Part shown: positions 19,777 to 59,334 of the stretch, in pieces
How positions within the stretch are numbered: position 1 is the stretch's first letter
Layout of the letters: every line of letters starts with the position of its first letter
Assembly: GCA_027482685.1 (NCBI GenBank)
Contig: JAIXVU010000008.1
Location: 4,652 to 68,651, forward strand
Source: a bacterium
GTDB taxonomy: Bacteria; Patescibacteriota; Minisyncoccia; Phycocordibacterales; UBA5272
Direction of reading: 5' to 3'
Length of the DNA stretch: 64,000 nt
The notes under the pieces: generated by a model
Database searches by the model: none
Told to the model about the DNA's origin: nothing
Seen by the model: the letters and a program-made list of their open reading frames with translations, nothing else
Made by a program: the position numbers and the translations under genes

Positions 19777-20433
19777 TTGGCAACTATGTGCGGAGTATTT
19801 CCTCATATGGTTGCCAACGGAAGTTGGCACTTGCTCTTTCAACCAACTGGAGAAACAACCATGTGCGGAATCGTACACCGTCCCACTCGTCGGAAGGATC
19901 TCGATCCGTCCACGTTCCCCAAGCTCTCAGTGTCTGCTGTGAGCAAGATCGTAGCCGCCTGTGAAGATGTCCATATCCCACATCTGGCGACTGCGCTTGT
20001 CCTTCACTTTGCCAATCACATGGCAGGCAAGAAGTGCTTCACGCTGGAAGTGATCCCGTTTGCTCTCTACGAGGGTGATAAGCGGATTATCTCGCGTGAG
20101 AGCGTGGAGTCCGAGGCTGCGGTGATACATCTAGCCATGGCCAGCACTGTCCGCCGCACCATCAACGCAGAACTGGCTGAGGTGGGGCTTGTCTTCGAGC
20201 TTGGTCACTGCTGTGATATTCAGATGTGGGAGCTCACTCGTGAAGAGGAGGCGGCCACGATGTCTCATGACTGGAACATCTGGCGTGCTGATAAGCTCCG
20301 CATGCTGACGAAAGATGCGGAAGAGATCGTTTCGTCGGAGGAGTTCATCTCCATTGCCGGCAATTTCAACCGAGATCTGATCAGCACGATGATCTCACTC
20401 GCCAGTGAGCAGCTGACACATGTCGACCACTGA
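19777..20433 (+). CDS. Hypothetical Cys/His-containing protein, GC-rich (~52%)
   Basis: Coding-like; no recognisable domain; abrupt compositional shift from the flanks. Confidence 0.45.
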   Translation: MATMCGVFPHMVANGSWHLLFQPTGETTMCGIVHRPTRRKDLDPSTFPKLSVSAVSKIVAACEDVHIPHLATALVLHFANHMAGKKCFTLEVIPFALYEGDKRIISRESVESEAAVIHLAMASTVRRTINAELAEVGLVFELGHCCDIQMWELTREEEAATMSHDWNIWRADKLRMLTKDAEEIVSSEEFISIAGNFNRDLISTMISLASEQLTHVDH

Positions 20434-20791
20434 TAAGTCATTCAGTGCTTTTCTGGCTGAGAATGCAGGCCATTTCCTTGAGCTTTGTCTTTTGGAAGGG
20501 TTTGTGTTCTCGGTGAGAAAAAGTGCTCACCGTATTACAATACGCTGTGCTCTTCCAAGCGGGATTGTCCGATTCGTCATCTTTGACGATCATCGGGTAG
20601 CAAGCCCCCACGGTGGCAAGCCACATGTGTGCAATCAGTGGTACAAAGCAGTTGGTGATCCTCTTTCGTTTACGATGGGGGAAGAAGTCAACGATGCTTC
20701 ACGACTTCAAAGTGTGCTACGAGCAACCGCTGTCATGTGTCTCACACAAAGCGAGGCATACAACGACATGAAAGCTCGTATCTTCCCTTAA
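20420..20791 (+). CDS. Hypothetical protein, GC-rich, translationally coupled to the upstream ORF
   Basis: 14-nt overlap with the previous ORF; terminator follows. Confidence 0.4.
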   Translation: MSTTDKSFSAFLAENAGHFLELCLLEGFVFSVRKSAHRITIRCALPSGIVRFVIFDDHRVASPHGGKPHVCNQWYKAVGDPLSFTMGEEVNDASRLQSVLRATAVMCLTQSEAYNDMKARIFP

Positions 20792-20807
20792 CCAAGGGTT
20801 TCATTCC

Positions 20808-41584: not shown

Positions 41585-41679
41585 GTGGGTGGTTAATAGT
41601 TAATGGTAAATAGTTAATAGTTAATAGTAAACAGTTAATTGCAAACATCTATACTTCAAATTTCAAATATAAAAAAGAA

Positions 41680-42110
41680 AGTGCCCGCCAACAGAGTTGG
41701 CGGGCTGGGTTGAGACGAAGCTCAAGGTTCCCTACGGCATCAGGGGCATGCCGATGGGCGTACCGGATCGGAAATCGATCGGGCGCAGCAGGTGTCTCAT
41801 TGAGTCTCCTGGATGCGTCGGGCCGAGATGGGCCGACAGGTTGTTGGCGCGGCCGTCATGGTCACGCTCAGTCGAGCGAACCGCTCATGTTTGAGCGAGG
41901 CGGGCAAACGTCACGTGGACGTCGCCAGCCTGCCGCAAGCGGTTGGCTCTCGTGCCCGTGCCGATCAGGCGTGGGTGGTGGCGGCCAGCGTGGCCGAGGT
42001 CGTGTAGGCCGCGGCGCAGGTGCCGGCGGTATCTTGCAACACCAAACTTGCATGGCTCGCCTGCCTGATCACGTTAACCAGTATAGCAGGTATTATGATT
42101 TTGTTAAGTA
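41680..42110. other. ~430-bp GC-rich (~65%) apparently non-coding foreign fragment
   Basis: Only overlapping junk ORFs in several frames; abrupt GC shift; flanked by GTTAATAGTTAATGG repeats; minus-strand terminator-like hairpin GCCCGCCAAC-AGAG-TTGGCGGGC at its left edge. Confidence 0.5.
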
Positions 42111-42919: not shown

Positions 42920-44437
42920 ATGTCAAAAACCCCAGCAAAAATGGAGGCAGTTCCACGTCAGCCTGTAATAGCAGTACTAGGCCATGTTGACCATGGGAAA
43001 TCCTCTCTCCTTGATTTCATCCGTAAGTCTAACGTTGTAGATGGCGAAGCAGGTGGTATCACCCAGCGTATATCAGCATACGAGGTACAGCACAAAATGC
43101 CAGATGGCAGTACAAAAGCTATCACATTCTTGGATACCCCAGGACATGCTGCATTCCAGAGCATGCGTGAACGTGGAGTAGAGATTGCAGATATCGCGAT
43201 ACTCATAGTGTCAGCAGAAGATGGTGTAAAGGCTCAGACACTAGAAGCGTGGAAGACAATTGATGCACGTAAACTTCCATACGTTGTAGCTATCAATAAA
43301 ATTGACAAGCCGGGTGCAGACATTCAGAAGACAAAGAACTCCCTAGTTGAAAATGGAATCTATATCGAAGGGTACGGAGGTGACGTCCCTTGTGTAGAAA
43401 TATCAGCAAAAGTTGGTACCGGTATTCCAGATTTACTTGAGACACTTCTACTTGTCGTTGATATGAACGCACTTACCGCTAATCTAGAGACCGAAGCAAC
43501 AGGAGTTGTTCTTGAAAGTTTCATGGATCCAAAGCGTGGAATATCAGCAACACTTGTTATCAAGGATGGTACACTACCAAGCTCTGGTGCAATCGTAGCA
43601 GGTACAGCTCTTTCTCCTATTCGTATCATAGAGGACTTTGCAGGACGTACCATCAAATCCCCTCATGCAGGTCAGCCAGTAAAAGTTACAGGGTTTGATG
43701 AGATTCCGGCGTCCGGTGCAATATTCGTCTCATCATCAGATAAGAAAGCAATGGAAAATCTTCAATCAGAGACCAAAAGCGCTACCCCAAAGGAAGTACT
43801 TGACCCGCGTATTTATAGAAATGCAAAAGTTGTTGTTCCAGTTGTTATTAAGGCTGATTCACTCGGGACTTTGGACGCTGTTAAACGTGAGCTCAAGAAA
43901 CGCGAGACCGATGATGTGAAAATAAAGATAATCGCAGAAGGTGCAGGCTCGCTCTCTGAAGGTGATATCATGCTCGCCTCATCTGATGAAAAAACAGTAG
44001 TGATAGGATTCGCTATCAAGCTAGAGCCTAAGGCTCGCGATCAGGCGGAACGTTTCAAGATAGAGCCACATCTATTTGATGTTATTTATAAACTATCAGA
44101 ATGGTTCGATACATTAGTCGAGAGTCGTATGCCATACGAGGAGAAAGAAGTTGTTTTAGGAACGCTCAAGATCTTACGTACATTTAGTTCACAAAAGGAT
44201 AAACATGTTATCGGAGGAAAAGTTGAGACAGGTAAGCTAACTAATACATCAGTCGTTAAGATAGTCCGTCGTGGTGTAGAACTTGGTCGTGGCAAAATAG
44301 TAGAACTACAATCACAAAAAATAAAGACCGCCGTAGTGAATGAAGGCAACGAATGTGGTCTCATGATTGAAAGTAAGATAGAAATGATTCCATCTGATGT
44401 GCTTGAGGCGGTAGAGATTGAGAAGACAAGAATCTAA
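42920..44437 (+). CDS. infB: Translation initiation factor IF-2 (short form)
   Basis: G-domain GHVDHGKSSLLD, DTPGHAAF and NKIDK motifs. Confidence 0.9.
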   Translation: MSKTPAKMEAVPRQPVIAVLGHVDHGKSSLLDFIRKSNVVDGEAGGITQRISAYEVQHKMPDGSTKAITFLDTPGHAAFQSMRERGVEIADIAILIVSAEDGVKAQTLEAWKTIDARKLPYVVAINKIDKPGADIQKTKNSLVENGIYIEGYGGDVPCVEISAKVGTGIPDLLETLLLVVDMNALTANLETEATGVVLESFMDPKRGISATLVIKDGTLPSSGAIVAGTALSPIRIIEDFAGRTIKSPHAGQPVKVTGFDEIPASGAIFVSSSDKKAMENLQSETKSATPKEVLDPRIYRNAKVVVPVVIKADSLGTLDAVKRELKKRETDDVKIKIIAEGAGSLSEGDIMLASSDEKTVVIGFAIKLEPKARDQAERFKIEPHLFDVIYKLSEWFDTLVESRMPYEEKEVVLGTLKILRTFSSQKDKHVIGGKVETGKLTNTSVVKIVRRGVELGRGKIVELQSQKIKTAVVNEGNECGLMIESKIEMIPSDVLEAVEIEKTRI

Positions 44438-44465: not shown

Positions 44466-44870
44466 ATGGATGCAAATAAACCAAAATCAGAAAGGCAGTT
44501 AAAAGTAGAACAGGAGGTCCTCGCTATCACGCAGGACTTCTTTCAGCGTGAATCTTCGGGTGCGAGCATGATAACCATCACTCGTACAGATATATCTCGT
44601 GATATGAAGCATGGGACTATTTTCATGACAGTGCTGCCTGAGAACAAGGAAGAAGCGGCGATTAACTTCGCCAAGCGTATGCGCAGTGAACTGCGTCATT
44701 ATGTTATGAAGAGACTTCCTGTGAAAGTGATTCCATTTTTTGAAGTAGAGATTGACTACGGAGAGAAGAACCGTTTGCATGTAGAGTCCCTCCTAAGACA
44801 AGATAAAGAAAAGCAAAAAGCTATCGAGGAATTACGTGAACAGAAACAGAAAGAATTAGAGGATAATTAA
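44466..44870 (+). CDS. rbfA: Ribosome-binding factor A
   Basis: Immediately follows infB; KH-like RbfA pattern. Confidence 0.8.
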   Translation: MDANKPKSERQLKVEQEVLAITQDFFQRESSGASMITITRTDISRDMKHGTIFMTVLPENKEEAAINFAKRMRSELRHYVMKRLPVKVIPFFEVEIDYGEKNRLHVESLLRQDKEKQKAIEELREQKQKELEDN

Positions 44871-44925: not shown

Positions 44926-44954
44926 ACGGGGAACGCTTGCGCGTTCCCCGTGTT
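44926..44954 (+). terminator. Rho-independent terminator
   Basis: ACGGGGAACGC-TTGC-GCGTTCCCCGT followed by TTT. Confidence 0.55.
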
Positions 44955-44990
44955 TACCAAGCCAGCCCTCCCGAGCTGCTTGGCGTATTG

Positions 44991-46064
44991 TCAGTGCACT
45001 GTGGCACCTGCAGCCGTCTGAGCGGCTGCGGTCACGACCGGCGCCTGTGGCGCCGGCTCTTCGTCAGCCTCGACCACATCGGCGTTGCCGTTGGCAATCG
45101 ACGCGGCGACTTGGTCGACCTCGTCCTCGTCCCAGAGCGGACGGAGGATGCTGGCGATGATGCTTGCGGCCGGATTCGAGTGCCCGGACTTGAGCAGTTG
45201 GTATGTCGGGATGTAGTTCCCGACCACCAGCCCTTCCGGGGCGCCGAGCGGTGCCACCGTCAGCTTGAGCGCGTGGATCATCGTGGCCCGCTCGCCCTTC
45301 CCTACCGGCACGAAGCAGGTCTGGAAGATGAGAGGCTTGTCACCGACGTTGAAGCCGAACGTGCCGACCTCGTCCTGGTCCATCACTTTCAAGAGTGAGC
45401 TCCCGATCTCGCCTGCAGCGATCTGCTCCCGCAGACCATCCATGGCCTCGCGGATGTTGATCGCTTCGGCGCCACCGGCGACCTCGATTGCACGCAGAAG
45501 TACGTCCATGACGGCCTTCTTCGTGTTTTCGAACTGCTGGTTGACCTCACGGTCACCAGTGCTCGCCCGCTGGAAGTACCGGCGCTTAGCCGGGTCGTCG
45601 TGCGAAGCGATTGATCGCAACTCATCGAAAAAGATGAAGAAGCCGACCGGCACCTTCCCGTTCTCCGAGCCGATCACCTTGGCCGCTTGGCGGTTGCCGC
45701 GCGGATTCGTGATAGTCGTACACTCGAAGAGGACATCTTCGAAGTAGAGATTCTCGACATCGCCGAAGGCGAAGAGAAGAAAATCCTCCGTGGCCTGCAA
45801 CCGGATGGCTGCGTTCTTGAGCGTCTCCTTGACGGGGTCACTCGTGGCAGACGTGCGCTCGACCATAACAGTCAGGTCGGGGTTGTTGCCGGCGGCCGTG
45901 GCCAACTGCGACGCGATGTCACCATGCGTCAGAGCGCTCCTGCCGGTGCGGCCGGTGTGGCCGCGGCGACCGGTGCGGCGAGCACGGCCGTTTGTTTCGT
46001 CGTCGTTGCTGTCGTCACGGAAATTCTGCTTGCCCATGTCGGGACTCCTTATTTGAGAATTCAT
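44991..46064 (-). CDS. Hypothetical protein, GC-rich (~62%) island gene A, basic Arg/Gly-rich N-terminus
   Basis: Strong coding signal; no recognisable domain. Confidence 0.55.
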   Translation of the reverse strand: MNSQIRSPDMGKQNFRDDSNDDETNGRARRTGRRGHTGRTGRSALTHGDIASQLATAAGNNPDLTVMVERTSATSDPVKETLKNAAIRLQATEDFLLFAFGDVENLYFEDVLFECTTITNPRGNRQAAKVIGSENGKVPVGFFIFFDELRSIASHDDPAKRRYFQRASTGDREVNQQFENTKKAVMDVLLRAIEVAGGAEAINIREAMDGLREQIAAGEIGSSLLKVMDQDEVGTFGFNVGDKPLIFQTCFVPVGKGERATMIHALKLTVAPLGAPEGLVVGNYIPTYQLLKSGHSNPAASIIASILRPLWDEDEVDQVAASIANGNADVVEADEEPAPQAPVVTAAAQTAAGATVH

Positions 46065-46150
46065 TACAGGGAACTACGGCGGCTATTCGGTTTTTGCTAC
46101 CCAATCAGGGTGAACGCGATTAGTCGTCGGCGTATTATAGCATAATTAAG

Positions 46151-46209
46151 TACTTTGTCAATATCATCACAGGCACTTAACTTGACAAAAGTACAAAATA
46201 GTGTATACT
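46151..46209. promoter_or_regulatory. Divergent promoter region with palindromic -35 pair
   Basis: GTACTTTGTCAA-N20-TTGACAAAAGTAC; rightward promoter TTGACA-N16-TATACT at 46182-46209. Confidence 0.6.
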
Positions 46210-46307
46210 ATATTCACTGGACTATTGGGGAAGTAAAAACCTTGATAGAGATCCGGTAAGTTCATTGACTTTTCCCGCATTTACTGTAGCGGGTCAGGAG
46301 AAAATTC

Positions 46308-47483
46308 ATGCCGAAGAACAAGGGTGCTGACGGACGCGGTGACAGCAAGAGCATCGCTGAACGCGAAAAGCAGTCGCAGGACGCGAAGCTCCGTCGAAAG
46401 AAAGTCGCCGCTGTCGAAGGCGGTGCGGTCAAGTCGTTCGCCGACCTGACCGCTCTGCCGGTCGAGAAGGTTGTCGTTGCGACGGCGACCATCGACGACA
46501 TGATCAACGGCCGCGTGGCCACTGGCCACGTCATCGGTGTCGGGGAGGGCAACCTCTTCGAGGTCACCCAGAAGGGCCTGACCCTTCGCGCAGCGGAAGA
46601 CCAGGCTCTCACCGGCTACACCACGCGGGGAGAGAACATCTTCCTTCCCTTGTGGTCGCTCACGCTGGACGAGTTCACCTCGCCGCTTCGTAACGGAGCG
46701 AAGAACCAGTTTTTCGCCGACAAGCAGGAAGCGATGTGGAAGCACATCGCTTCGGAGATGACTGACGAGCAGACCCGCGCGCTCAAGAAGCGCTTGGATG
46801 ACGAGAAGGAGTCCGGCAAGTACGTCGGCGAAGATCGCGAAATCTTCGCCCGAGCGAACCGGAACATCAGCGACGCGTTCGAGGCACTCACCCTCGAGAA
46901 CTGCTTCGTGGAGTTCCGGATCGGCAACGATCTCGAGAAGAGCATCGTCGTCGGCGTTAGCGTCAGCAACGGCGCACTCGAGCTTCGCTTCGGCCACGTC
47001 GGTGGCGGGCATGAGCTCGCTGGCAAGGTGATCAAGGGCACCGTCCTCTGGGCTTCCGGCGGGCTGTTGCCCGAGACCTTGAGCGAGGCTCAGCTCAACT
47101 CGGTCTTTGGACCGTCGCTCACCGCCATGCGGTCTGTGCTGCTGAACGGCACCCACCGTGAGGTGGTAATATCCGGGCTCCTGGCTGCCCACCAGCGCCT
47201 CCGCAAGGAAGGGCGGGCAAATCAGAAGGTGGCATCGGTACTCACACTGGTCCCCTCCAAGAAGGTCGAGACTCCGGTCGCTCAGACCGTCGCCCCGACC
47301 CCTGCCCCCAAGCCGGTCGCGCAACCCGCACCGGTGATGACCGGAACGGTCTCTCCCGAACAGGACAACATCACCCAGCTCATCAAGAGCTTGCGTGAAG
47401 CCGGTATGAGCCCGAAGGATATCGGCGAAGCCATTGCGGGCTACAACACCAACAAGGCCAGCTCCGGCAGCAAGTCTGCCTGA
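46308..47483 (+). CDS. Hypothetical protein, GC-rich island gene B (basic N-terminus, Pro-rich linker, small C-terminal domain)
   Basis: Strong coding signal; no recognisable domain. Confidence 0.55.
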   Translation: MPKNKGADGRGDSKSIAEREKQSQDAKLRRKKVAAVEGGAVKSFADLTALPVEKVVVATATIDDMINGRVATGHVIGVGEGNLFEVTQKGLTLRAAEDQALTGYTTRGENIFLPLWSLTLDEFTSPLRNGAKNQFFADKQEAMWKHIASEMTDEQTRALKKRLDDEKESGKYVGEDREIFARANRNISDAFEALTLENCFVEFRIGNDLEKSIVVGVSVSNGALELRFGHVGGGHELAGKVIKGTVLWASGGLLPETLSEAQLNSVFGPSLTAMRSVLLNGTHREVVISGLLAAHQRLRKEGRANQKVASVLTLVPSKKVETPVAQTVAPTPAPKPVAQPAPVMTGTVSPEQDNITQLIKSLREAGMSPKDIGEAIAGYNTNKASSGSKSA

Positions 47484-47520
47484 TCGGCCAAGTGGCTCGT
47501 GCAATGCGAGCCACAAACAC

Positions 47521-47560
47521 GCTCCACCCCGACTAACCGTCGTGCGGTGGAGCTTTTTTA
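47521..47560 (+). terminator. Rho-independent terminator
   Basis: GCTCCACC...GGTGGAGC followed by TTTTTTATTT. Confidence 0.7.
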
Positions 47561-47638
47561 TTTGTAATGCATTTTCAGTATTCGCAAAAAATACATTTTT
47601 ACGCTATAATCTCTTAACAGTTTTCAAAAAGTAAATAT

Positions 47639-47722
47639 GCCCGGGTGGCGAAATTGGTAGACGCACTTGCCTTAGGAGCAAGCGAGGCAACTCATGAAGG
47701 TTCAAGTCCTTTCCCGGGCACC
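47639..47722 (+). tRNA. tRNA-Leu (anticodon TAG)
   Basis: GCCCGGG acceptor, D-arm GGCGAAATTGGTAGACGC, anticodon loop CTTAGGA, long variable arm, T-arm, CCCGGGC-A; own promoter TTCGCA...TATAAT upstream. Confidence 0.9.
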
Positions 47723-49339
47723 CTTTAGTACATTTTGATTCTCAAGAGAGTCAAAAGGTGGATTAAGTGTTTGTTTATAAGGTTTTTTATCCTTAACATA
47801 AAAGTTCAAGAAGATTTTCCTCATTATATAGTCTAAATCACTCATTTGTGTCATTTTAGGTATGTTTTCTGGGACTTTTTCCATAAGTTTAATAAATTCA
47901 GAATAAGTAATAATTCCATCTTTTTCGTTGTCTAATAACTTTTTAAGTTTAGTTATCTCTTTTTCTTTATCTTTAATACTTGCCTCAATCTTTACAATGT
48001 CATTTCTATAATAATCTTTTATATTATCCGACTCATTTCCTACAAGTAAATCTTTCACTTGTTCAAACCTTTCCTTTAAATAGTTTATTTGTTTTGATAA
48101 CACCAAAATGTTATTTTTCAATATCCCAGAATTTTTTGATAAAACATTTTTCATCTCATTAACAAAATGGTCATAACTCCCTTTACTTGAAAAAGGTTTT
48201 TGTTCTAGATAGTCAGTTGCAAATCCTATTATCTCTTTAGCTCTTATAGATTTATTTCTTTGAGGGCATTCCACTGTATCACATCTGTAATAAAAGTACC
48301 CCTCAGAGCCGTTCTTTAGTTTTTTGCTTGTTATTCCAGGTGTTAACGCTTCATTGCAGTCACCACAAATAATCATTCCAGTCATTAAATTAGCTTTCTT
48401 GTTATCTCCTTTTTTATATCTCTTGGAAAGTTTAATAAATTCTGAATTACCAGTTAGTTTATTTATTCTAAAAAATTCATCAACTGTAATCATAGGAATG
48501 AAGCCTTGTATTTTTATGAGATTAACAACCACACCTTTTCCATACATAAGAATGCCTGTATATACTGGGTCTTTCATTATTGTTAACAACCTTTGTTTGG
48601 TCATTCCATAAACTTTAGGAGATGTTTCTGTATTTGAGTGATAATAGTTATTATCCTTTAAGTAATCACATATTTCATCAAAAGTCTTTCCTTCAAGGCG
48701 AAGCTGAAAAGCGTTTTGCAACAAAACAAAGTTTTCACCATTTGGTATAAGATTACTATTTCTATCTTTGAAATAACCATTCTTTGCTTTGTTTACATAA
48801 GCACCTCTTTCAATACTTTTTTCATTGCCACGCATAACATCATCTGATAATTTATCGGAGTATTCTTTTGAGAGAACAAAAGTAATGCCTAGTAACATTT
48901 TTCCACTCGTATCATTCGTAAATGAAAAACTAGGAAACTTCAAATCTGCTATGATGTGCTTATCAAGCAAATCTATAACCTCTCCCGCCTCTTTCATATT
49001 TCTGGATAACCTATCTGGATGCCAAGCAATTATTCCGTCGTACTTACCACTTTTTAATCCATTTAACATTTCTCTAAAAATGGGTCGTATATCTGGCTCT
49101 TTAGCAGACCTTTTTTCTATAAGAATATCCACCTTCTTTAATTCGTTTCTTTCAGCAAATTCAACACATTTATCAACCTGGTCCTCAATTGAAAAAACTT
49201 GTTTACTTTCTTCATCCGTTGACTTTCTTGCATAGATTACATATTTCAATTTTGCTGTGTCTACATCTCTGCCGTTTATTGGTATTGCTAACCTCAATAA
49301 TTCAGCTAACTCTTCAGGTGTTTTTGGAAAATCTGACAT
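47702..49339 (-). CDS. Large serine recombinase (resolvase catalytic domain, recombinase domain, zinc-ribbon, coiled coil)
   Basis: N-terminal YARKSTDEE...DRLSR; 545 aa; stop codon lies inside the tRNA-Leu T-arm. Confidence 0.85.
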   Translation of the reverse strand: MSDFPKTPEELAELLRLAIPINGRDVDTAKLKYVIYARKSTDEESKQVFSIEDQVDKCVEFAERNELKKVDILIEKRSAKEPDIRPIFREMLNGLKSGKYDGIIAWHPDRLSRNMKEAGEVIDLLDKHIIADLKFPSFSFTNDTSGKMLLGITFVLSKEYSDKLSDDVMRGNEKSIERGAYVNKAKNGYFKDRNSNLIPNGENFVLLQNAFQLRLEGKTFDEICDYLKDNNYYHSNTETSPKVYGMTKQRLLTIMKDPVYTGILMYGKGVVVNLIKIQGFIPMITVDEFFRINKLTGNSEFIKLSKRYKKGDNKKANLMTGMIICGDCNEALTPGITSKKLKNGSEGYFYYRCDTVECPQRNKSIRAKEIIGFATDYLEQKPFSSKGSYDHFVNEMKNVLSKNSGILKNNILVLSKQINYLKERFEQVKDLLVGNESDNIKDYYRNDIVKIEASIKDKEKEITKLKKLLDNEKDGIITYSEFIKLMEKVPENIPKMTQMSDLDYIMRKIFLNFYVKDKKPYKQTLNPPFDSLENQNVLKGARERT

Positions 49340-49446
49340 GCTGTTATATTATCACAATACAAAAGAGAAAAGACGGCTAGAAAATAAAGCTGAAGCACTC
49401 TTGGTTGTTCCAAAATTGACCATTATTAATAAAAAGAGTACTTTGT

Positions 49447-49911
49447 TTAGCGTTTTACACTACCCCATTTATCAAGCATATCTAGCGCTTTCTTTTTTTG
49501 TTCTTTAATTTTTAATATGTTTGCCTCAGAATCATAGTATAAATTACTTGAATCTTGTGGCATTACTCTTGGTTTTCCATATAGACGGTCAAAGAAAATT
49601 TGAATAGCCTTTATGTCACCATTTCTTGCTTTGTTTATAAGTTGAATAAGTATAATTTGTTCAATATCTATATCTTCCAAAGTAAATTTATCTTTATGTG
49701 TTTCGTTATATTGATTTACATAATTTATAGCAATTCTTTCCATTGCCAAATCTATGAGAGTGCTATAATTTCTCACCCCTTTTTGTCTTCCATTCGGGTT
49801 GCCTGACTGACCCTTTTGGAAAGGTTTCAAGTTACTTTTACTTTTAGGATTACTTCCCCGCAAAGTACCGTCTTTTGATATTGTTTCACTATTTCTTTCA
49901 CTGCTTTGCAT
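49447..49911 (-). CDS. Phage-associated DUF5681-like protein
   Basis: GNPNGRQKG motif near the N-terminus. Confidence 0.45.
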   Translation of the reverse strand: MQSSERNSETISKDGTLRGSNPKSKSNLKPFQKGQSGNPNGRQKGVRNYSTLIDLAMERIAINYVNQYNETHKDKFTLEDIDIEQIILIQLINKARNGDIKAIQIFFDRLYGKPRVMPQDSSNLYYDSEANILKIKEQKKKALDMLDKWGSVKR

Positions 49912-49996
49912 ATGTATATCATAATAAAAAATAACAAAATAATACAGAGAAAGTGTATATGTTTATTCTTTGAGCAAATTCATTAGTACCCGTAAA

Positions 49997-50758
49997 TTAC
50001 TCTGGCATAGTTTCTTCTGTGAGAATCACAGGGGGTTGAGCGCTCTGTACAATTTCTACCAACTTTGCTTTTTTCTTTAGCTCGGTCTTTGCTTTTGGCT
50101 TAGAAACATCTAAGGTTGTAGTAATTATTTGGTAAACAGATTCTAAAATATCTTCACTAGAAAAGTTTACCCCTGTCTTACTTTTTAGGTTTTTCTTTAG
50201 AAGCTTAATAACCGACTCATCAAATAAGTATTTTGATAATGAAACTGGCGACAAACTGTCAACTTTTTTCCAATAAATATCAAGTAAATTCTTTGAAATA
50301 GCTTTTTTAGTAATAAGTTCAAACAAAGTAAAACAGTCTTTGTAATCTTTTTCATTGAGTAAATCTAAATCAAAAACAAGTTTTGTGTAGACTGGCTTTG
50401 CAAACATAACCTTATAGAGCTGAAACTGTTTACCATTTAAGAGTAGTATCCAGTCTATACCCTCACTAGCTGAGTAACCCAAACTTTGCCTTAGGTGATT
50501 TTCATTTAGTTTTATACCTAGCGACTTAACTTCTACAACCATCCTCTTTTTCTTACCTGTTTGAATAACATAATCAGCATAACCACCACTTATTTCATAC
50601 TCAGTTTTAATCTCTTCATTTTGAGAGTATCCGAGTACGTTTCTTAAAAAATCATTTATAAGTAATCTAGTGCCAGACTCGTTTAATTTTGGGTTATTTT
50701 TATATGCCAAAACTAAATCTTTCTTATAATCCTTAATAGCATCTTTATGGTTTTTCAT
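49997..50758 (-). CDS. PD-(D/E)XK nuclease-fold protein (HsdR-N/Mrr-like core)
   Basis: GYADYVIQ...VVEVK reads as a D...E-x-K motif. Confidence 0.5.
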   Translation of the reverse strand: MKNHKDAIKDYKKDLVLAYKNNPKLNESGTRLLINDFLRNVLGYSQNEEIKTEYEISGGYADYVIQTGKKKRMVVEVKSLGIKLNENHLRQSLGYSASEGIDWILLLNGKQFQLYKVMFAKPVYTKLVFDLDLLNEKDYKDCFTLFELITKKAISKNLLDIYWKKVDSLSPVSLSKYLFDESVIKLLKKNLKSKTGVNFSSEDILESVYQIITTTLDVSKPKAKTELKKKAKLVEIVQSAQPPVILTEETMPE

Positions 50759-50765
50759 AAGACTG

Positions 50766-51212
50766 TTAGCGAGTTTTATCTTTTAGTTCATCTAATAATT
50801 TTTTCAACTTGTAAGGATTAGCAACGTTCCTTAACACCACTTCTTGCCCCCCAGTTCCAGCAGTATCAATAGAAATAATCCCCGATTTGGTAAAGACTCT
50901 TTGTAGGAATGGTTCAGAAACATACGTATCAGTTATCTTGTTGTAGTCAATACTCACCAAACTTGTTGACAACCATCCTCGGTGGATTAAAACTCTTTTA
51001 TTAGTAAAAGCATAGACATTTGCTCGTTTAACGTAAAATAAGAAGTAGAATAAAACAAAAAGAGGAGCCCCTATTGTGAAAAATGGTAAAGATATAACTA
51101 ACCAAATAATCATATAAAAAATTCTATATTTATCACCGACTGAAAACTCTTCTTTAACTTCTTCACTGTTACCTAAAACTTTCTTCCAAATATCTTGATT
51201 TACTGTATTCAT
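50766..51212 (-). CDS. Membrane-anchored bacterial PH-domain protein (bPH_2/DUF304)
   Basis: TM hairpin followed by a YdbS/YdbT-like PH domain. Confidence 0.55.
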   Translation of the reverse strand: MNTVNQDIWKKVLGNSEEVKEEFSVGDKYRIFYMIIWLVISLPFFTIGAPLFVLFYFLFYVKRANVYAFTNKRVLIHRGWLSTSLVSIDYNKITDTYVSEPFLQRVFTKSGIISIDTAGTGGQEVVLRNVANPYKLKKLLDELKDKTR

Positions 51213-51284
51213 ATTATTAAGTTGTTAAAATTAATTTTTAAGAGCTATATAAAAAACAAAATAGGCACCCCATATAGCGGAGTG

Positions 51285-51405
51285 CCCAAAAACCAATAGA
51301 TTAACTACTGATTATGTTCTCCGCATAGGATGCCTATGCTGTACACAATCAGTAGTTAACCCTTGTGGGTTTTTGATTTATTTCTTATTGGTTTTTGGGC
51401 AGTTT
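51285..51405. repeat. Long imperfect palindrome inside the integrative element
   Basis: GCCCAAAAACCAATAGATTAACTACTGATT...AATCAGTAGTTAAC...TATTGGTTTTTGGGC. Confidence 0.6.
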
Positions 51406-51759
51406 AATTATATCACATAGAGGAAAACACCTTATTACTACTATATAATAAGTTCAATAACTCCTTTGTATATACAAAACTATCTCTTTTCTATTCCAAG
51501 AGTTACAACTCTCCCATCCCCACTTGTTACTTGCTGTGGCAAAGTACCTGTACTTACTGGAGTTTTTGGAAGATGTTGAACTACATCTGTTAAGTTGTCT
51601 TTTCTCATATACTAAAAGTATACCATGCTTAATAAGTAATAATTAGAGTGTCTTTGGCATACTCTTTAGACAGAAACTCTTTCATAGACTTATTCCAAAT
51701 CTTTACTACTTCAAGGTTATTTATTAGTATTTCAAAAAGTTCAAGTGTGGTATGATACT

Positions 51760-51815
51760 CTGCACAGAATAATAAATACCCATACTGTAATCAGTATGGG
51801 TATTTATTATTCTGT
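51760..51815. repeat. Perfect 24-bp-arm palindrome
   Basis: CACAGAATAATAAATACCCATACTG-TAATC-AGTATGGGTATTTATTATTCTGTG. Confidence 0.8.
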
Positions 51816-51822
51816 GAGCATT

Positions 51823-51911
51823 TGAAGCATGTGACCTGCGTCACATGCGGAAGGACTTGAATAGAGGTCGCGAAACTTTATCGACGAGCTTGCGAGGAGA
51901 AGTTTTGTGAC
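51823..51911 (+). repeat. tRNA-associated structured module copy 1 ending in the tRNA-Leu 3'-end duplicate
   Basis: Hairpin GCATGTGAC-CTGC-GTCACATGC, core GGTCGCGAAAC...GTTTTGTGACC, then caagtcctttcccgggcac. Confidence 0.7.
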
Positions 51912-52003
51912 CAAGTCCTTTCCCGGGCACATAAATACAAAAGACAGACTTTCAAGGTCTGTCTTTTGTATTGACTGTGTTTCTATAGAAGCAAACAAAC
52001 TTG

Positions 52004-52082
52004 CTTTGTTTGCGGAAGGACTTGAATACGAGGTCACGAAACCACTTCGAGCAGAGCGAGGTAGTTTTGTGACCAAGTCCTT
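52004..52082 (+). repeat. tRNA-associated structured module copy 2 (degraded 3' end)
   Basis: GCGGAAGGACTTGAATACGAGGTCACGAAAC...GTTTTGTGACCAAGTCCTT. Confidence 0.65.
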
Positions 52083-56514: not shown

Positions 56515-56737
56515 GAATCAAAAATGAATACAGAAGAGGCGCCTTCGGCGCCTTATTTGTATTCTATCTAACATAATTTTAATAACACAACTAATTTGCA
56601 AATATGTCTATGGTATGAGAGGATAAGGTCGGAAATATCTTTTTGCTCTTTTACAAAAAAAGCAAGCAATTCAACTCATCTCTATTGAAAGGGTAATCAT
56701 GCGTATCACAAAAGCGTAAGGTTGTGTCATCGCTCTT

Positions 56738-57892
56738 GTGATGACGTCAATCTCGATGTATTTCTATCTGCTGTACTTCACAGGGTCACCGTTTCAACAA
56801 GCGAGTTACCACTGGGGAACATGGTTCTTTCTTGCTGGGCTGCTCTTTAGTAGATTCGGCGTGAATGATGTTGGGTCACATGGCTACCTTGCCTTTTTCG
56901 GTAAGGCGGTTCGTCATGCTGATGGCTCATATGTGAAGTGGGGAGATGGTATGTACCTTATCCCCACACTTTTCCCTCCATTTAATGTCATTGGCGTCCC
57001 TCTTGGTTGGACGATGAAGCACGCAAGTACAAGTGAGATCCCTATCCGTCCGGTAACACCACAAGAAGATAATTATGTCTTCTTGGATCATCGCTTGCCA
57101 CGTTACAACATCAATTCAACGGTTGGGTATTGGCAACAGACCTTCGCGAGGCTAACTGAGAATTTTATTAGTTGGGTCTTTAGCTACAACCCACAGAGCG
57201 AACTACGCTACCAGAAGATTGGTAGTATTCTCATGGTAATCGGTCTTGCGTTAGGGTGGTTCATGCAACAGCGACAGGGATACTTCCCCCAAACTGAACA
57301 AGTGATCACATATCAATCTGGTGAACAAAGTGCGGCAAAGGCCAAGATGATAACTAATAATAATCGCCAGCCGCAAGTAGTAGAGAGTGCGGCTACAATG
57401 CCTCGCCAACAACCTCCTGTCATCAATGGGTATACCGTCAACCTTGCTGTGGGGCAAGTGCCGAGATATCCATCACGTGCAGACTTCATGGAGGTGGTCA
57501 AGACCTCAGGAGTGCAGTACTACTACCGAGATGTAGACGGTCTCAAATACTTCTGGTATGTAGAAGGTGAAAGTGAAGCACCTGTTACCCTACCTCCATC
57601 ATCCTGCAAGATAGTGCCTGCAGGAAAAGAGGTAAGGCTATCCTCCAGTGTTCCACCACGGTACGTCATCAACATGGAAGAGTCCATTCTATACCGTGTG
57701 AAGAGCGCATACCTTCCCGAGAACGAACGCAGTCTGTTGTTCCCCAATAGTTCACAACTACGCAAGGGCACCTGGGGCATACTCCGTGCCAACTGGAACA
57801 CCTATGACAGGCAGAGTGACGGTATATTGGCGCGTACCCTTCCACAAGGCTCATTACCTTCGTCACAGTATGGTGGGCTTGTTTGTTTCTGA
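56738..57892 (+). CDS. Hypothetical protein, GC-elevated (~50%) island
   Basis: Long ORF with an N-terminal hydrophobic segment; no domain. Confidence 0.4.
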   Translation: MMTSISMYFYLLYFTGSPFQQASYHWGTWFFLAGLLFSRFGVNDVGSHGYLAFFGKAVRHADGSYVKWGDGMYLIPTLFPPFNVIGVPLGWTMKHASTSEIPIRPVTPQEDNYVFLDHRLPRYNINSTVGYWQQTFARLTENFISWVFSYNPQSELRYQKIGSILMVIGLALGWFMQQRQGYFPQTEQVITYQSGEQSAAKAKMITNNNRQPQVVESAATMPRQQPPVINGYTVNLAVGQVPRYPSRADFMEVVKTSGVQYYYRDVDGLKYFWYVEGESEAPVTLPPSSCKIVPAGKEVRLSSSVPPRYVINMEESILYRVKSAYLPENERSLLFPNSSQLRKGTWGILRANWNTYDRQSDGILARTLPQGSLPSSQYGGLVCF

Positions 57893-57928
57893 TCTCATAT
57901 GACTAGCGATGCAGGTCTAGTCTTTGCA

Positions 57929-57968
57929 CAGCCACGAGGTGAAAACTTCGTGGCTGTTTTCTTTTTTA
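57929..57968 (+). terminator. Rho-independent terminator
   Basis: CAGCCACGA-GGTGAAAACT-TCGTGGCTG followed by a T-run. Confidence 0.75.
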
Positions 57969-57995
57969 TATGATATCAGAGACCTATACGAAAGC

Positions 57996-58024
57996 TTGAC
58001 AAAAAAGTGTAAATAGTGTAAGAT
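57996..58024 (+). promoter_or_regulatory. Sigma-70-like promoter nearly identical to the 46182 promoter
   Basis: TTGACAAAAAAGTGTAAATAGTG-TAAGAT versus TTGACAAAAGTACAAAATAGTG-TATACT. Confidence 0.6.
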
Positions 58025-58089
58025 AGTAAACAGATGTTGTTTGAATGTTGTATAAGTTTAAGCAACTAATTCCACCGTTTGGAGGAAAG

Positions 58090-58479
58090 ATGAATGATGA
58101 AAAAAATCCTGAGGCGCCAAAAGTAGTTCTCGATGAACTACTTGGGAAGCTGGGGGTTGGAAAGGTGCCCAGCACCACCCCAACCCTCACGCTACCACCG
58201 GCCCCGACTGTGAGACATGCTACCGATTCGTCACGTGACATTGGTGGATATGCCTCACCCCCTCCGTCATCGGTCACCGATGGCAAGAAAGAAGAAAACA
58301 GCGCATTTGATCTGAAGGGGTTTCTCTTCAGGTTTGGAGTGAGCTCAGTTTTTTGGCTTGTTGTTGTGGGAGGAATGATACTCTACTTTGACAACAAAAG
58401 AGTCATTGCAGAATCATCCTCTCAAGTCGCAGCACCGAAGGGTGCATCGCGACAAATTCCTATCCCGCCCTCCAGGTGA
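58090..58479 (+). CDS. Hypothetical Pro-rich protein with C-terminal TM, GC-rich
   Basis: GGAGGAAAG RBS before ATG at 58090. Confidence 0.4.
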   Translation: MNDEKNPEAPKVVLDELLGKLGVGKVPSTTPTLTLPPAPTVRHATDSSRDIGGYASPPPSSVTDGKKEENSAFDLKGFLFRFGVSSVFWLVVVGGMILYFDNKRVIAESSSQVAAPKGASRQIPIPPSR

Positions 58480-58508
58480 AGGCACATCAACTACAGGAGA
58501 GAAAAAAC

Positions 58509-58880
58509 ATGGCTGGACTCCCCACAACCGTTGGCAGTAGGTCTGCCGCACCGGCATCGGCAACAAAGAGCAACAACGCCACCCAGGTGTTCGTTGTCGG
58601 CGTTCTCGTGGCGATGCTCGTCATTTTCCTCCACCTCTGGGGGAAGTATGACACTGATGCGCGCACCCAGCGCGCACAAGAATACAGTCAGACGGATGGA
58701 GCTCGTGAAGAACGAGCCTACCGTCTCGCGCTTGAAAGACTCGAAGCGGAAAAACTTCGTGCGCAAGCAGACTTGGAGAGGGCAAAACGGCTCGACGGCC
58801 GCACTGTTCTGATCCCGCCCAATGGAGCTGTCTGCCAAGACGGCTACCCATGGTCATCAACCACCGGATGTAACCGGTAG
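58509..58880 (+). CDS. Hypothetical single-TM protein with coiled-coil segment, GC-rich (~58%)
   Basis: AGGAGA RBS before ATG at 58509. Confidence 0.4.
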   Translation: MAGLPTTVGSRSAAPASATKSNNATQVFVVGVLVAMLVIFLHLWGKYDTDARTQRAQEYSQTDGAREERAYRLALERLEAEKLRAQADLERAKRLDGRTVLIPPNGAVCQDGYPWSSTTGCNR

Positions 58881-58891
58881 AAAGGATAAGC

Positions 58892-59170
58892 ATGTCTGAC
58901 CCAGCACCAAAGGCCGGAGGTCTAAAGCCCGGCGCAATCCTGCTCATCATCGGAGCGGTCGTTATCGGTGTCATCCTCATCGGGGTCGCCATCGAGGAAT
59001 TCCTCTTGTCCATTGCACGAGGAATCGGCAACGCATCCACCGAGCTCGCTCGTCGAGCGGGAGATATCAGTGTGGCAAAGCTGATCGCCCACGACATCGG
59101 AACCTGGATTGCAACAGCAATTGTTGTCCTGCTCTTCATTGGGTGGGCGGCGAAAAAGCTGAGGGAGTAG
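58892..59170 (+). CDS. Hypothetical two-TM small membrane protein, GC-rich
   Basis: 92 aa; two hydrophobic helices. Confidence 0.45.
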   Translation: MSDPAPKAGGLKPGAILLIIGAVVIGVILIGVAIEEFLLSIARGIGNASTELARRAGDISVAKLIAHDIGTWIATAIVVLLFIGWAAKKLRE

Positions 59171-59334
59171 CATCCCCTCCGTGATGACAACACGTAAAAA
59201 TCACCGAAGGCTACCCGCTTTCGTGTACATAGAATGTGTTCTCGTTTTACCGCGAGACCACAACCTCATGTGCGCGGAAAGAACGGGTAGCCTTCTTTTG
59301 TTTTGTATTGAAGTCGTATTGTTAGCCATCTCCA

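Follow-up and report, generated by a model that had tools for sequence, protein, structure and literature searches.

Cassettes by which bacteria switch surface proteins through recombination are well known and include the Clostridioides difficile S-layer (slpA) cassette, flagellin central-domain alleles and capsule loci; S-layer, flagellin and receptor-type proteins are typical of the abundant proteins which are exposed to antagonists. Stem-loops at the 5' end of the mRNA act as stabilizers of abundantly expressed genes, as in the ompA, aprE and S-layer gene leaders. In Gracilibacteria (BD1-5) a hypervariable gene has been described which combines extreme local variation with codons shifted to GC-ending relative to the genome, and which carries a 9-mer repeat array and encodes a protein predicted to be membrane-anchored and extracellular (PMC6851277). 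The present analysis concerns a GC-rich island of two divergent genes, here called orfA and orfB, which lies between rbfA and tRNA-Leu(UAG) in a 64,000-nucleotide stretch of contig JAIXVU010000008.1 (the whole of this stretch is referred to as the window) and which had been singled out in an earlier interpretation made from the letters alone (the sequence-only reading). We consider it probable, at roughly 60%, that the island is a native, clade-specific hypervariable locus whose GC richness is kept in place. A search of the literature found no description of this locus or phenomenon.

The rbfA to tRNA-Leu(UAG) slot and its alleles

GC content measured in 300-nt windows was 0.58-0.67 from approximately 44.95 to 47.5 kb, against a mean of 0.41 for the whole window, with abrupt changes of composition at 44.95 and 47.55 kb and a dip to 0.42 mid-island which corresponds to the intergenic region. 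The GC-rich island proposed earlier was therefore recovered, with approximately 62-63% GC in both coding sequences, and so was its host-unlike composition and codon usage: GC at third codon positions (GC3) was 0.79 in orfA and 0.81 in orfB, compared with 0.25-0.45 in neighbouring host genes.

A common gene order of DUF4446, infB, rbfA, one or more GC3-rich genes and then, where the contig reaches it, tRNA-Leu(UAG) was found at related loci (designated L001-L006, L017, L025, L029, L041, L043, L044, L047 and L049/50). In the window, infB (42920-44437) precedes rbfA (44466..44870, plus strand), which forms the conserved upstream anchor, while the downstream anchor is tRNA-Leu(UAG) at 47638-47723 on the plus strand, with a promoter-like site of its own (feature span 47581..47723). 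The sequence-only reading had correctly placed the island upstream of this tRNA gene, which is co-oriented with and adjoins orfB in the window, L002, L017, L025, L029 and L047. Homologues of orfB lie downstream beside rbfA in nine of the related loci (L002, L017, L025, L029, L041, L043, L044, L047 and L049), and every member of the family with visible neighbouring genes is chromosomal and adjoins rbfA. The divergent orfA/orfB pair itself was found in three lineages, represented by the window, L001-6 and L049/50. Other relatives carry different GC3-rich ORFan genes in the slot, joined by a web of weak similarity and encoding basic, Lys/Arg/Gly/Asn-rich N-termini. Presence in the slot is not patchy, with homologous GC3-rich genes in most related loci. 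The metagenome-assembled genomes from which these loci derive are mostly labelled Candidatus Saccharibacteria, and the others Paceibacterota or Parcubacteria. By synteny, then, orfA and orfB are residents of the lineage, which is essentially the outcome that the sequence-only reading had named as contrary to its own view. They are nevertheless not ordinary genes, being highly unusual both in composition and in how fast they diversify.

Gene content within the slot also varied. At L001 (2054-5382; also in L002-L004), the closest relative with an orfA, the interval from orfA to rbfA holds a DEAD/ResIII helicase gene (742 aa, GC3 0.47) and a gene of 307 aa, and L029 has a His_Phos_1 gene in the slot, of which a 73-aa remnant is present in the 98%-identical L047; these genes indicate that the slot also gains and loses other genes. 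The infB gene upstream of rbfA encodes only 505 aa and begins at the G domain without a long N-terminal region, and the same is observed in all related loci.

Comparison of alleles gave the clearest view of how the locus evolves. Between the window and L001, protein identity was 93% for infB, 49% for orfA and 30-34% for orfB. A sharper contrast was provided by L029 and L047, which share 98.2% nucleotide identity over a 5.65 kb flank and have infB and rbfA proteins that are 99% and 100% identical, respectively. Their orfB proteins were only 36% identical and there was no detectable nucleotide similarity in the body of the orfB coding sequence, whereas the promoter, leader and first codons were 74% identical and the last ~110 nt of the coding sequence, 3' untranslated region (UTR) and tRNA were 83% identical. 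Conversely, L029 and L041/42 carry the same orfB allele (97%). Across seven genomes orfB identity and infB identity were uncorrelated (rho 0.01), and the alleles have diverged too far for dS to be estimated. An orfB identity of 36% between flanks which are 98.2% identical leads us to regard the locus as an allele-swapping hypervariable cassette. Ancient and extremely divergent alleles are exchanged among near-identical genomes by recombination through the conserved flanks. Such a pattern would be anticipated if abundant proteins were subject to diversifying or frequency-dependent selection where the cell meets a host, phage or competitor.

Regulatory signals and the encoded proteins

The divergent two-gene module reported from the sequence was confirmed, with orfA and orfB transcribed away from a shared intergenic region (46038-46307, GC 0.404). 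Both promoters are the two best-scoring sites in the region. That of orfA (46134..46161, minus strand, read 46161->46134) is TTGACA-16-TATAAT with an extended -10 TG and 12/12 matches to consensus, and that of orfB (46182..46209, plus strand) reads cTTGACAAAAGTAC...TATACT (TTGACA-16-TATACT) with 11/12 matches, exactly the promoter predicted earlier. The inverted repeat from which palindromic TTGACA promoters had been proposed is present as quoted but imperfect, the complement of its left arm being TTGACAAAGTAC and its right arm TTGACAAAAGTAC. The near-consensus, back-to-back promoters of that proposal therefore stand, whereas the palindrome amounts to just two -35 boxes. As the spacing of these boxes is not kept (20 nt in the window, ~61 nt in L002 and 8 nt in L049), the palindrome was rejected as a conserved operator. 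The orfB promoter was kept in all orfB-homologue loci examined, in the form cTTGACAaa-N16/17-TATA(C/A)T, and is 94% identical to that of L043.

Long leaders follow both promoters, with transcription start sites placed from the -10 box and hairpins taken from single-sequence folds and inspection. The orfA leader (46038..46127, minus strand, ~90 nt) contains a CACCC-tgat-GGGT(A/G) hairpin and an AAGGAG Shine-Dalgarno sequence, and at 81% nucleotide identity to L002 is better kept than the orfA coding sequence. The orfB leader (46216..46307, plus strand, ~92 nt) has a 5'-terminal hairpin, a GTTCATT motif, a hairpin proximal to the Shine-Dalgarno sequence (CCCGC...GCGGG) and AGGAG. In the leaders of orfB homologues, which measure 75-130 nt, the predicted 5' end forms a hairpin, a GTTCATT-like motif comes next, and another hairpin stands just before the Shine-Dalgarno sequence. 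This architecture is common to 10 homologous loci while the stem sequences differ, those of the second hairpin being GCGC/GCGC, CCCGC/GCGGG, GGGG/CCCC or GCGGAT/ATCCGC depending on the locus. RNAalifold predicted no pairs on a MAFFT alignment of nine orfB leaders. The host-style terminators which had been noted at the edges of the island were also verified: the orfA terminator (44926..44951, minus strand) is intrinsic, with an 11-bp stem containing 8 G-C pairs followed by a T-run, and is partly bidirectional with rbfA, and the intrinsic orfB terminator (47522..47558, plus strand) consists of CTCCACC...GGTGGAG and a T-run.

Promoters, leaders and terminators look host-like by their sequence and the regulatory DNA is AT-rich. 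GC content was 0.31 in the promoter core and 0.42-0.48 in the leaders, compared with 0.59-0.61 in the 3' UTRs and, at the level of the feature, 0.628 and 0.625 in the orfA and orfB coding sequences. Transcript bodies are therefore GC-rich while promoters and leaders are not, and the change falls sharply at the start codon.

The gene orfB (46308..47483, plus strand, GC 0.63) encodes 391 aa, as had been read from the sequence. For orfA the predicted 357 aa correspond to the mechanical open reading frame (ORF), which runs to 46064; the gene is better taken as 348 aa (44991..46037, minus strand, GC 0.63), with its start at Met10, because the AAGGAG precedes this codon and the database gene call P0001 (348 aa) starts there. 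GC at codon positions 1/2/3 was 0.64/0.44/0.79 in orfA and 0.62/0.44/0.81 in orfB, and nucleotide identity between orthologues decreased in the order position 2, position 1, position 3; this combination identifies both as genuine coding sequences. A 411-aa antisense ORF was rejected as a composition artefact of the kind usual at high GC3.

The core gene of the locus is orfB, which belongs to a family of ~400-aa predicted soluble proteins. An exhaustive HMMER scan returned 23 matches to the orfB profile among 1.84 billion protein representatives, and a scan of metagenome contigs with the orfB pair alignment gave no match. Family members have a basic N-terminus (M-A/P-K-x-K-G..G.G..K.IA.RE), the motifs KQ.AMW, VGE..W and HVG.K..LAGKV, and a Pro/Ala linker followed by a ~30-aa C-terminal helical module with a conserved ...K(S/T)A C-terminus. 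Divergence spans the whole protein, the N-terminal 20 aa being the best-conserved part. One member, P0020 of L045 (196-1329), has a duplicated C-terminal helical module and is not GC3-rich, and may serve as a natural control for the GC effect. By comparison orfA is a changeable partner. Its only non-self relative in a set of 5.8 billion clustered proteins was P0002 (49% identity), a further orfA-like gene (L049:3028-4098) is 29% identical, and both of these stand in the same divergent arrangement as the pair in the window; a scan of genome contigs with the orfA alignment found no match. The two genes were rejected as paralogues of one another after comparison, and orfA proved unrelated to the 'gene 1' family of L017/L025.

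Basic N-termini rich in Arg and Gly, another feature seen earlier, were found in both proteins and are rich in Lys as well. In orfA (pI 5.0) the N-terminal tail contains (T/R)GR repeats, which are encoded by 9-nt tandem-like repeats (CCGGTGCGG-type) at 45934-45990; the pI of orfB is 8.7. Sequence analysis revealed no signal peptide and no transmembrane segment in either protein, the maximum Kyte-Doolittle 19-residue score being 1.28. Non-classical signals might reside in the well-conserved first 20 aa of the family and in the C-terminal ...KSA.

The earlier remark that no domain could be recognised held throughout. Neither protein matched Pfam, PHROGs, NCBIfam or PADLOC, profile searches of the PDB gave no credible match, no Pfam/NCBIfam domain was present in 19 members of the orfB family, and domain and family searches of 10 partner proteins found no match. 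PADLOC defence models gave 0 matches for orfA, orfB and three locus partners. The structural route which had been suggested was followed but assigned no fold: AlphaFold2 models from two-sequence alignments had a mean confidence (pLDDT) of 39 for both proteins and were unusable, and Foldseek gave nothing above noise for the model of orfB (E>0.3, TM about 0.1). The locus encodes an undescribed protein family.

Each gene would form an independent high-output unit, with a near-consensus sigma-70 promoter, a ~90-nt two-hairpin leader, a strong Shine-Dalgarno sequence and a strong terminator, and the proteins are accordingly predicted to be abundant. Since strong expression signals combined with extreme, recombination-driven diversity typify antagonist-exposed proteins, by analogy the most likely role of orfA and orfB is at an interface with host, phage or competitor. 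The locus probably marks proteins which are among the most strongly expressed and fastest-diversifying of this uncultured, Saccharibacteria-like clade of ultra-small bacteria of the Candidate Phyla Radiation (CPR), and which would be candidates for molecules that mediate, or are targeted in, host attachment, phage attack and competition. The near-consensus promoter and putatively stabilising leader also offer a possible expression cassette for emerging Patescibacteria genetics.

Origin and maintenance of the GC richness

Genes in the slot had GC3 of 0.48-0.90 compared with 0.21-0.37 in adjacent infB, rbfA and DUF4446 across 16 loci, and the two values were correlated (Spearman 0.77, p=5e-4), so that island GC3 tracks that of the host. 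For orfB homologues with visible genomic context the contrast was 0.67-0.90 against 0.21-0.40 in the host. The promoter, the design of the leader and the excess of GC3 are repeated at upwards of 10 homologous loci, which makes the pattern more than chance. In the flanks of the window and L001, fourfold degenerate sites are near saturation (identity 0.33-0.51 versus 0.26-0.32 expected from composition), and GC3 of the island genes is 0.80-0.87 on both sides. An import which has not yet ameliorated cannot explain this, and high GC3 despite the AT bias of the host implies that some force must hold GC. The effect is mostly synonymous, amino-acid composition being shifted only mildly. TTA, CTA, ATA and AGA hardly occur, AAG is far commoner than AAA, GGC and CGC are favoured alongside GGT and CGT, which are still used, and enrichment is found in both G- and C-ending codons.

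Selection acting on the transcript is, in our assessment, the most likely driver of GC, with a recombination-linked GC bias as the main alternative. A GC-rich, structured mRNA would resist RNases and live long in an AU-adapted cell. Transcript selection, the preferred reading, fits the sharp 5' boundary, the GC-rich 3' UTRs and a companion GC-rich unit at 41.7-42.1 kb.

The sequence-only reading had offered two possible sources of the island, a high-GC host as donor and a phage or other element of different origin, and neither was borne out. If a high-GC donor, either an actinobacterial host or its phage, had recently passed on the two genes as an island, this would account for the GC3 of ~0.80, for the Actinobacteria-like codons (GCC, GGC, CCG, CGC, GTC, and AAG at 95%) and for the position beside a tRNA gene and an integrated element. 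Such an acquisition is nevertheless very improbable: the module keeps its synteny and its GC richness over genomes with near-saturated synonymous sites, no homologue of it was found outside a small, clade-restricted family found in a CPR context, and its AT-rich promoters, leaders and terminators are host-like and conserved with those of the homologues. Searches of phage, plasmid and viral collections, which the earlier interpretation had recommended, gave no match to orfA or orfB (IMG/VR scans 0; INPHARED tblastn 0; PHROGs 0). No integrase, transposase or flanking direct repeats were found within 44.9-47.6 kb; the 19-nt repeats nearby bound a separate 30%-GC element (47722-51930), and the module is situated on the 5' side of the tRNA instead of at the tRNA 3' end. 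Islands of base composition are routinely taken for horizontal transfer, and calls made from composition only would misclassify this module of 62% GC and GC3 0.8 in a genome of ~40% GC. Imports might instead be recurrent, with the rbfA-to-tRNA-Leu hotspot reloaded from an unsampled high-GC reservoir such as an extrachromosomal element or virus which circulates among these bacteria, so that the genes never ameliorate. Allele replacement in 98%-identical backgrounds, variable partner-gene content, a generic high-GC codon usage unrelated to the expression-linked bias of the host, and, in most relatives, another variable GC-rich island that precedes DUF4446 are all in keeping with such a reservoir. 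We judge it unlikely, as no viral, plasmid or phage match was found, and as the family members with visible neighbours are all chromosomal beside rbfA, island GC3 tracks that of the host, a host-like promoter and leader travel with the gene, and the cassettes are without mobility genes. As for an assembly chimera, in which a high-GC contig was joined into a CPR scaffold, the abrupt composition changes at 44.95 and 47.55 kb are what it would produce. This possibility, raised in the sequence-only reading, is practically nil: an independent Logan assembly of another run (L007) contains an identical 4.9 kb in which orfB and orfA are joined to rbfA and infB and so excludes it, the same architecture is present in more than 10 other assemblies, and the boundaries coincide with host-like regulatory signals of the same genes.

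A neutral or mechanistic drive, through locus-specific GC-biased gene conversion with intense recombination or through targeted AT-to-GC mutagenesis, would have no described counterpart of such a size in bacteria. Recombination demonstrably takes place at the locus, unconstrained positions (GC3, 3' UTRs) are GC-rich while constrained regulatory DNA is not, and both G- and C-ending codons are enriched, all of which such a drive would explain. Elevation of GC3 associated with recombination is also reported in bacteria (PMC4450053). However, allele classes share no nucleotide similarity in the body of the coding sequence, so that heteroduplex would be expected in the flanks, which are not GC-rich, and the 5' boundary is sharp at the start codon. 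Reported effects of biased gene conversion in bacteria are small in relation to a difference of +0.45 in GC3. On balance we hold this drive to be doubtful. The absence of a template/variable repeat in the window speaks against a mutator of the retroelement type, and mutagenesis by a diversity-generating retroelement was rejected since no such repeat was found inside the island or elsewhere in the 64 kb; no repeat of island sequence was present elsewhere in the window either, and no genome-wide search for a reverse transcriptase was made. A more exotic proposal is that the genes keep their Actinobacteria-like codons since it is the high-GC host of this episymbiont which decodes them, or to which they are tuned. 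We give this only the slightest chance. Were it true, the locus would be the counterpart, between two bacteria, of T-DNA or effector-mRNA delivery. Its sigma-70 promoters, being universal, would function in host and symbiont alike, and the fast turnover of alleles would be the mark of an arms race between them.

Against the interpretation of a native locus held GC-rich by selection on its transcripts, several observations must be set. The correlation between slot and host GC3 was drawn from loci which are phylogenetically non-independent. The codon table varies little from locus to locus and looks like the table of any high-GC bacterium, which would also fit a foreign high-GC reservoir. There is no general link between expression and GC, as ATP synthase, SOD, ClpB and infB have GC3 of 0.32-0.45, and codon optimisation for translation in the organism itself was rejected after island codon shifts showed no relation to those of putatively well-expressed host genes (r=-0.01, with a small, guessed gene set); translational selection of the host type is therefore not supported. 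The L045 member has a GC3 of 0.40, and we know of no precedent for selection holding a GC3 of 0.8 in a genome at 0.3. With respect to function, abundance of the proteins is predicted from promoter, Shine-Dalgarno and leader design only, and as signal peptide, transmembrane segment and anchoring domain are all lacking, surface exposure is unsupported. The locus nonetheless constitutes a natural experiment for separating mRNA selection from biased gene conversion in the evolution of bacterial GC content.

Neighbouring features and comparison with known systems

A second GC-rich unit of ~400 nt (41675-42107, minus strand, GC 0.66) has its own promoter (TTAACA-16-TATACT with TG, 42107->42080) and terminator (41705-41683). 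It contains no convincing ORF, had no Rfam match even at E<=10 and is apparently non-coding; Rfam detected only tRNAs over the window. Most relatives have a GC-rich island at the same place, between a class-V aminotransferase gene and DUF4446, often with GC3-rich ORFs of 180-270 aa and, in L001, a 54-aa ORF preceded by a Shine-Dalgarno sequence; no nucleotide similarity was found between the unit in the window and its L001 version.

On the other side of the locus, a ~4.2 kb integrated element of 30% GC (47722-51930) is located at the tRNA-Leu(UAG) 3' end. A perfect 19-nt direct repeat, CAAGTCCTTTCCCGGGCAC, bounds the element at 47703-47721 and 51912-51930, with further partial repeats at 51901-52082. 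The element encodes a 545-aa large serine recombinase (47702-49339, minus strand) together with DUF5681, HSDR_N/PD-(D/E)XK-like and bPH_2 proteins. L047 has a similar serine recombinase after the same tRNA, and in L009 a 545-aa ORF with a similar N-terminus lies beside tRNA-Leu(UAG). GC is also moderately raised (0.48-0.58; GC3 up to 0.63) at 19777-20800 and 56700-59200, where the ORFs have no Pfam match. The latter stretch (56.7-59.2 kb) is located between tRNA-Cys and dprA, an interval of only ~0.7 kb in L008, and both may be further variable slots of the same kind.

With these neighbours in place the locus can be set against the systems described at the outset. An atypical composition beside a tRNA gene recalls tRNA-associated genomic islands, of which the integrated element at 47722-51930 is a genuine example. 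The module itself differs from these in lying 5' of the tRNA without integrase or direct repeats, in its clade-wide synteny and in its host-like regulatory DNA. The Gracilibacteria gene (PMC6851277) resembles the locus as a CPR gene with extreme variation and a shift to GC-ending codons, but differs in its repeat array, which the present locus is without; here the genes are GC-rich over their whole length and it is the alleles of different genomes that vary.

As in 5' stem-loop stabilizers, a hairpin is located within a few nt of the predicted 5' end of a long leader with a strong Shine-Dalgarno sequence, and the architecture is kept while the stem sequence changes. In contrast to the ompA, aprE and S-layer gene leaders, the transcription start here is deduced from the -10 box and the structure from per-sequence folds. 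With respect to switching antigenic cassettes, the locus shares very divergent alleles between conserved flanks in near-identical backgrounds, as well as a strong promoter, a long structured leader and a terminator of its own. It departs from them in that orfA and orfB lack a signal peptide, transmembrane segment, secretion signal or cell-wall-anchoring domain, and no SLH, CWB2 or similar S-layer domain was found in orfA, orfB or the 19 family members with Pfam/NCBIfam. Whereas in central-domain switching the variation is confined to the middle of the protein, orfB diverges along its whole length and is best conserved in its N-terminal 20 aa, and the extreme GC3 excess is no feature of such cassettes.

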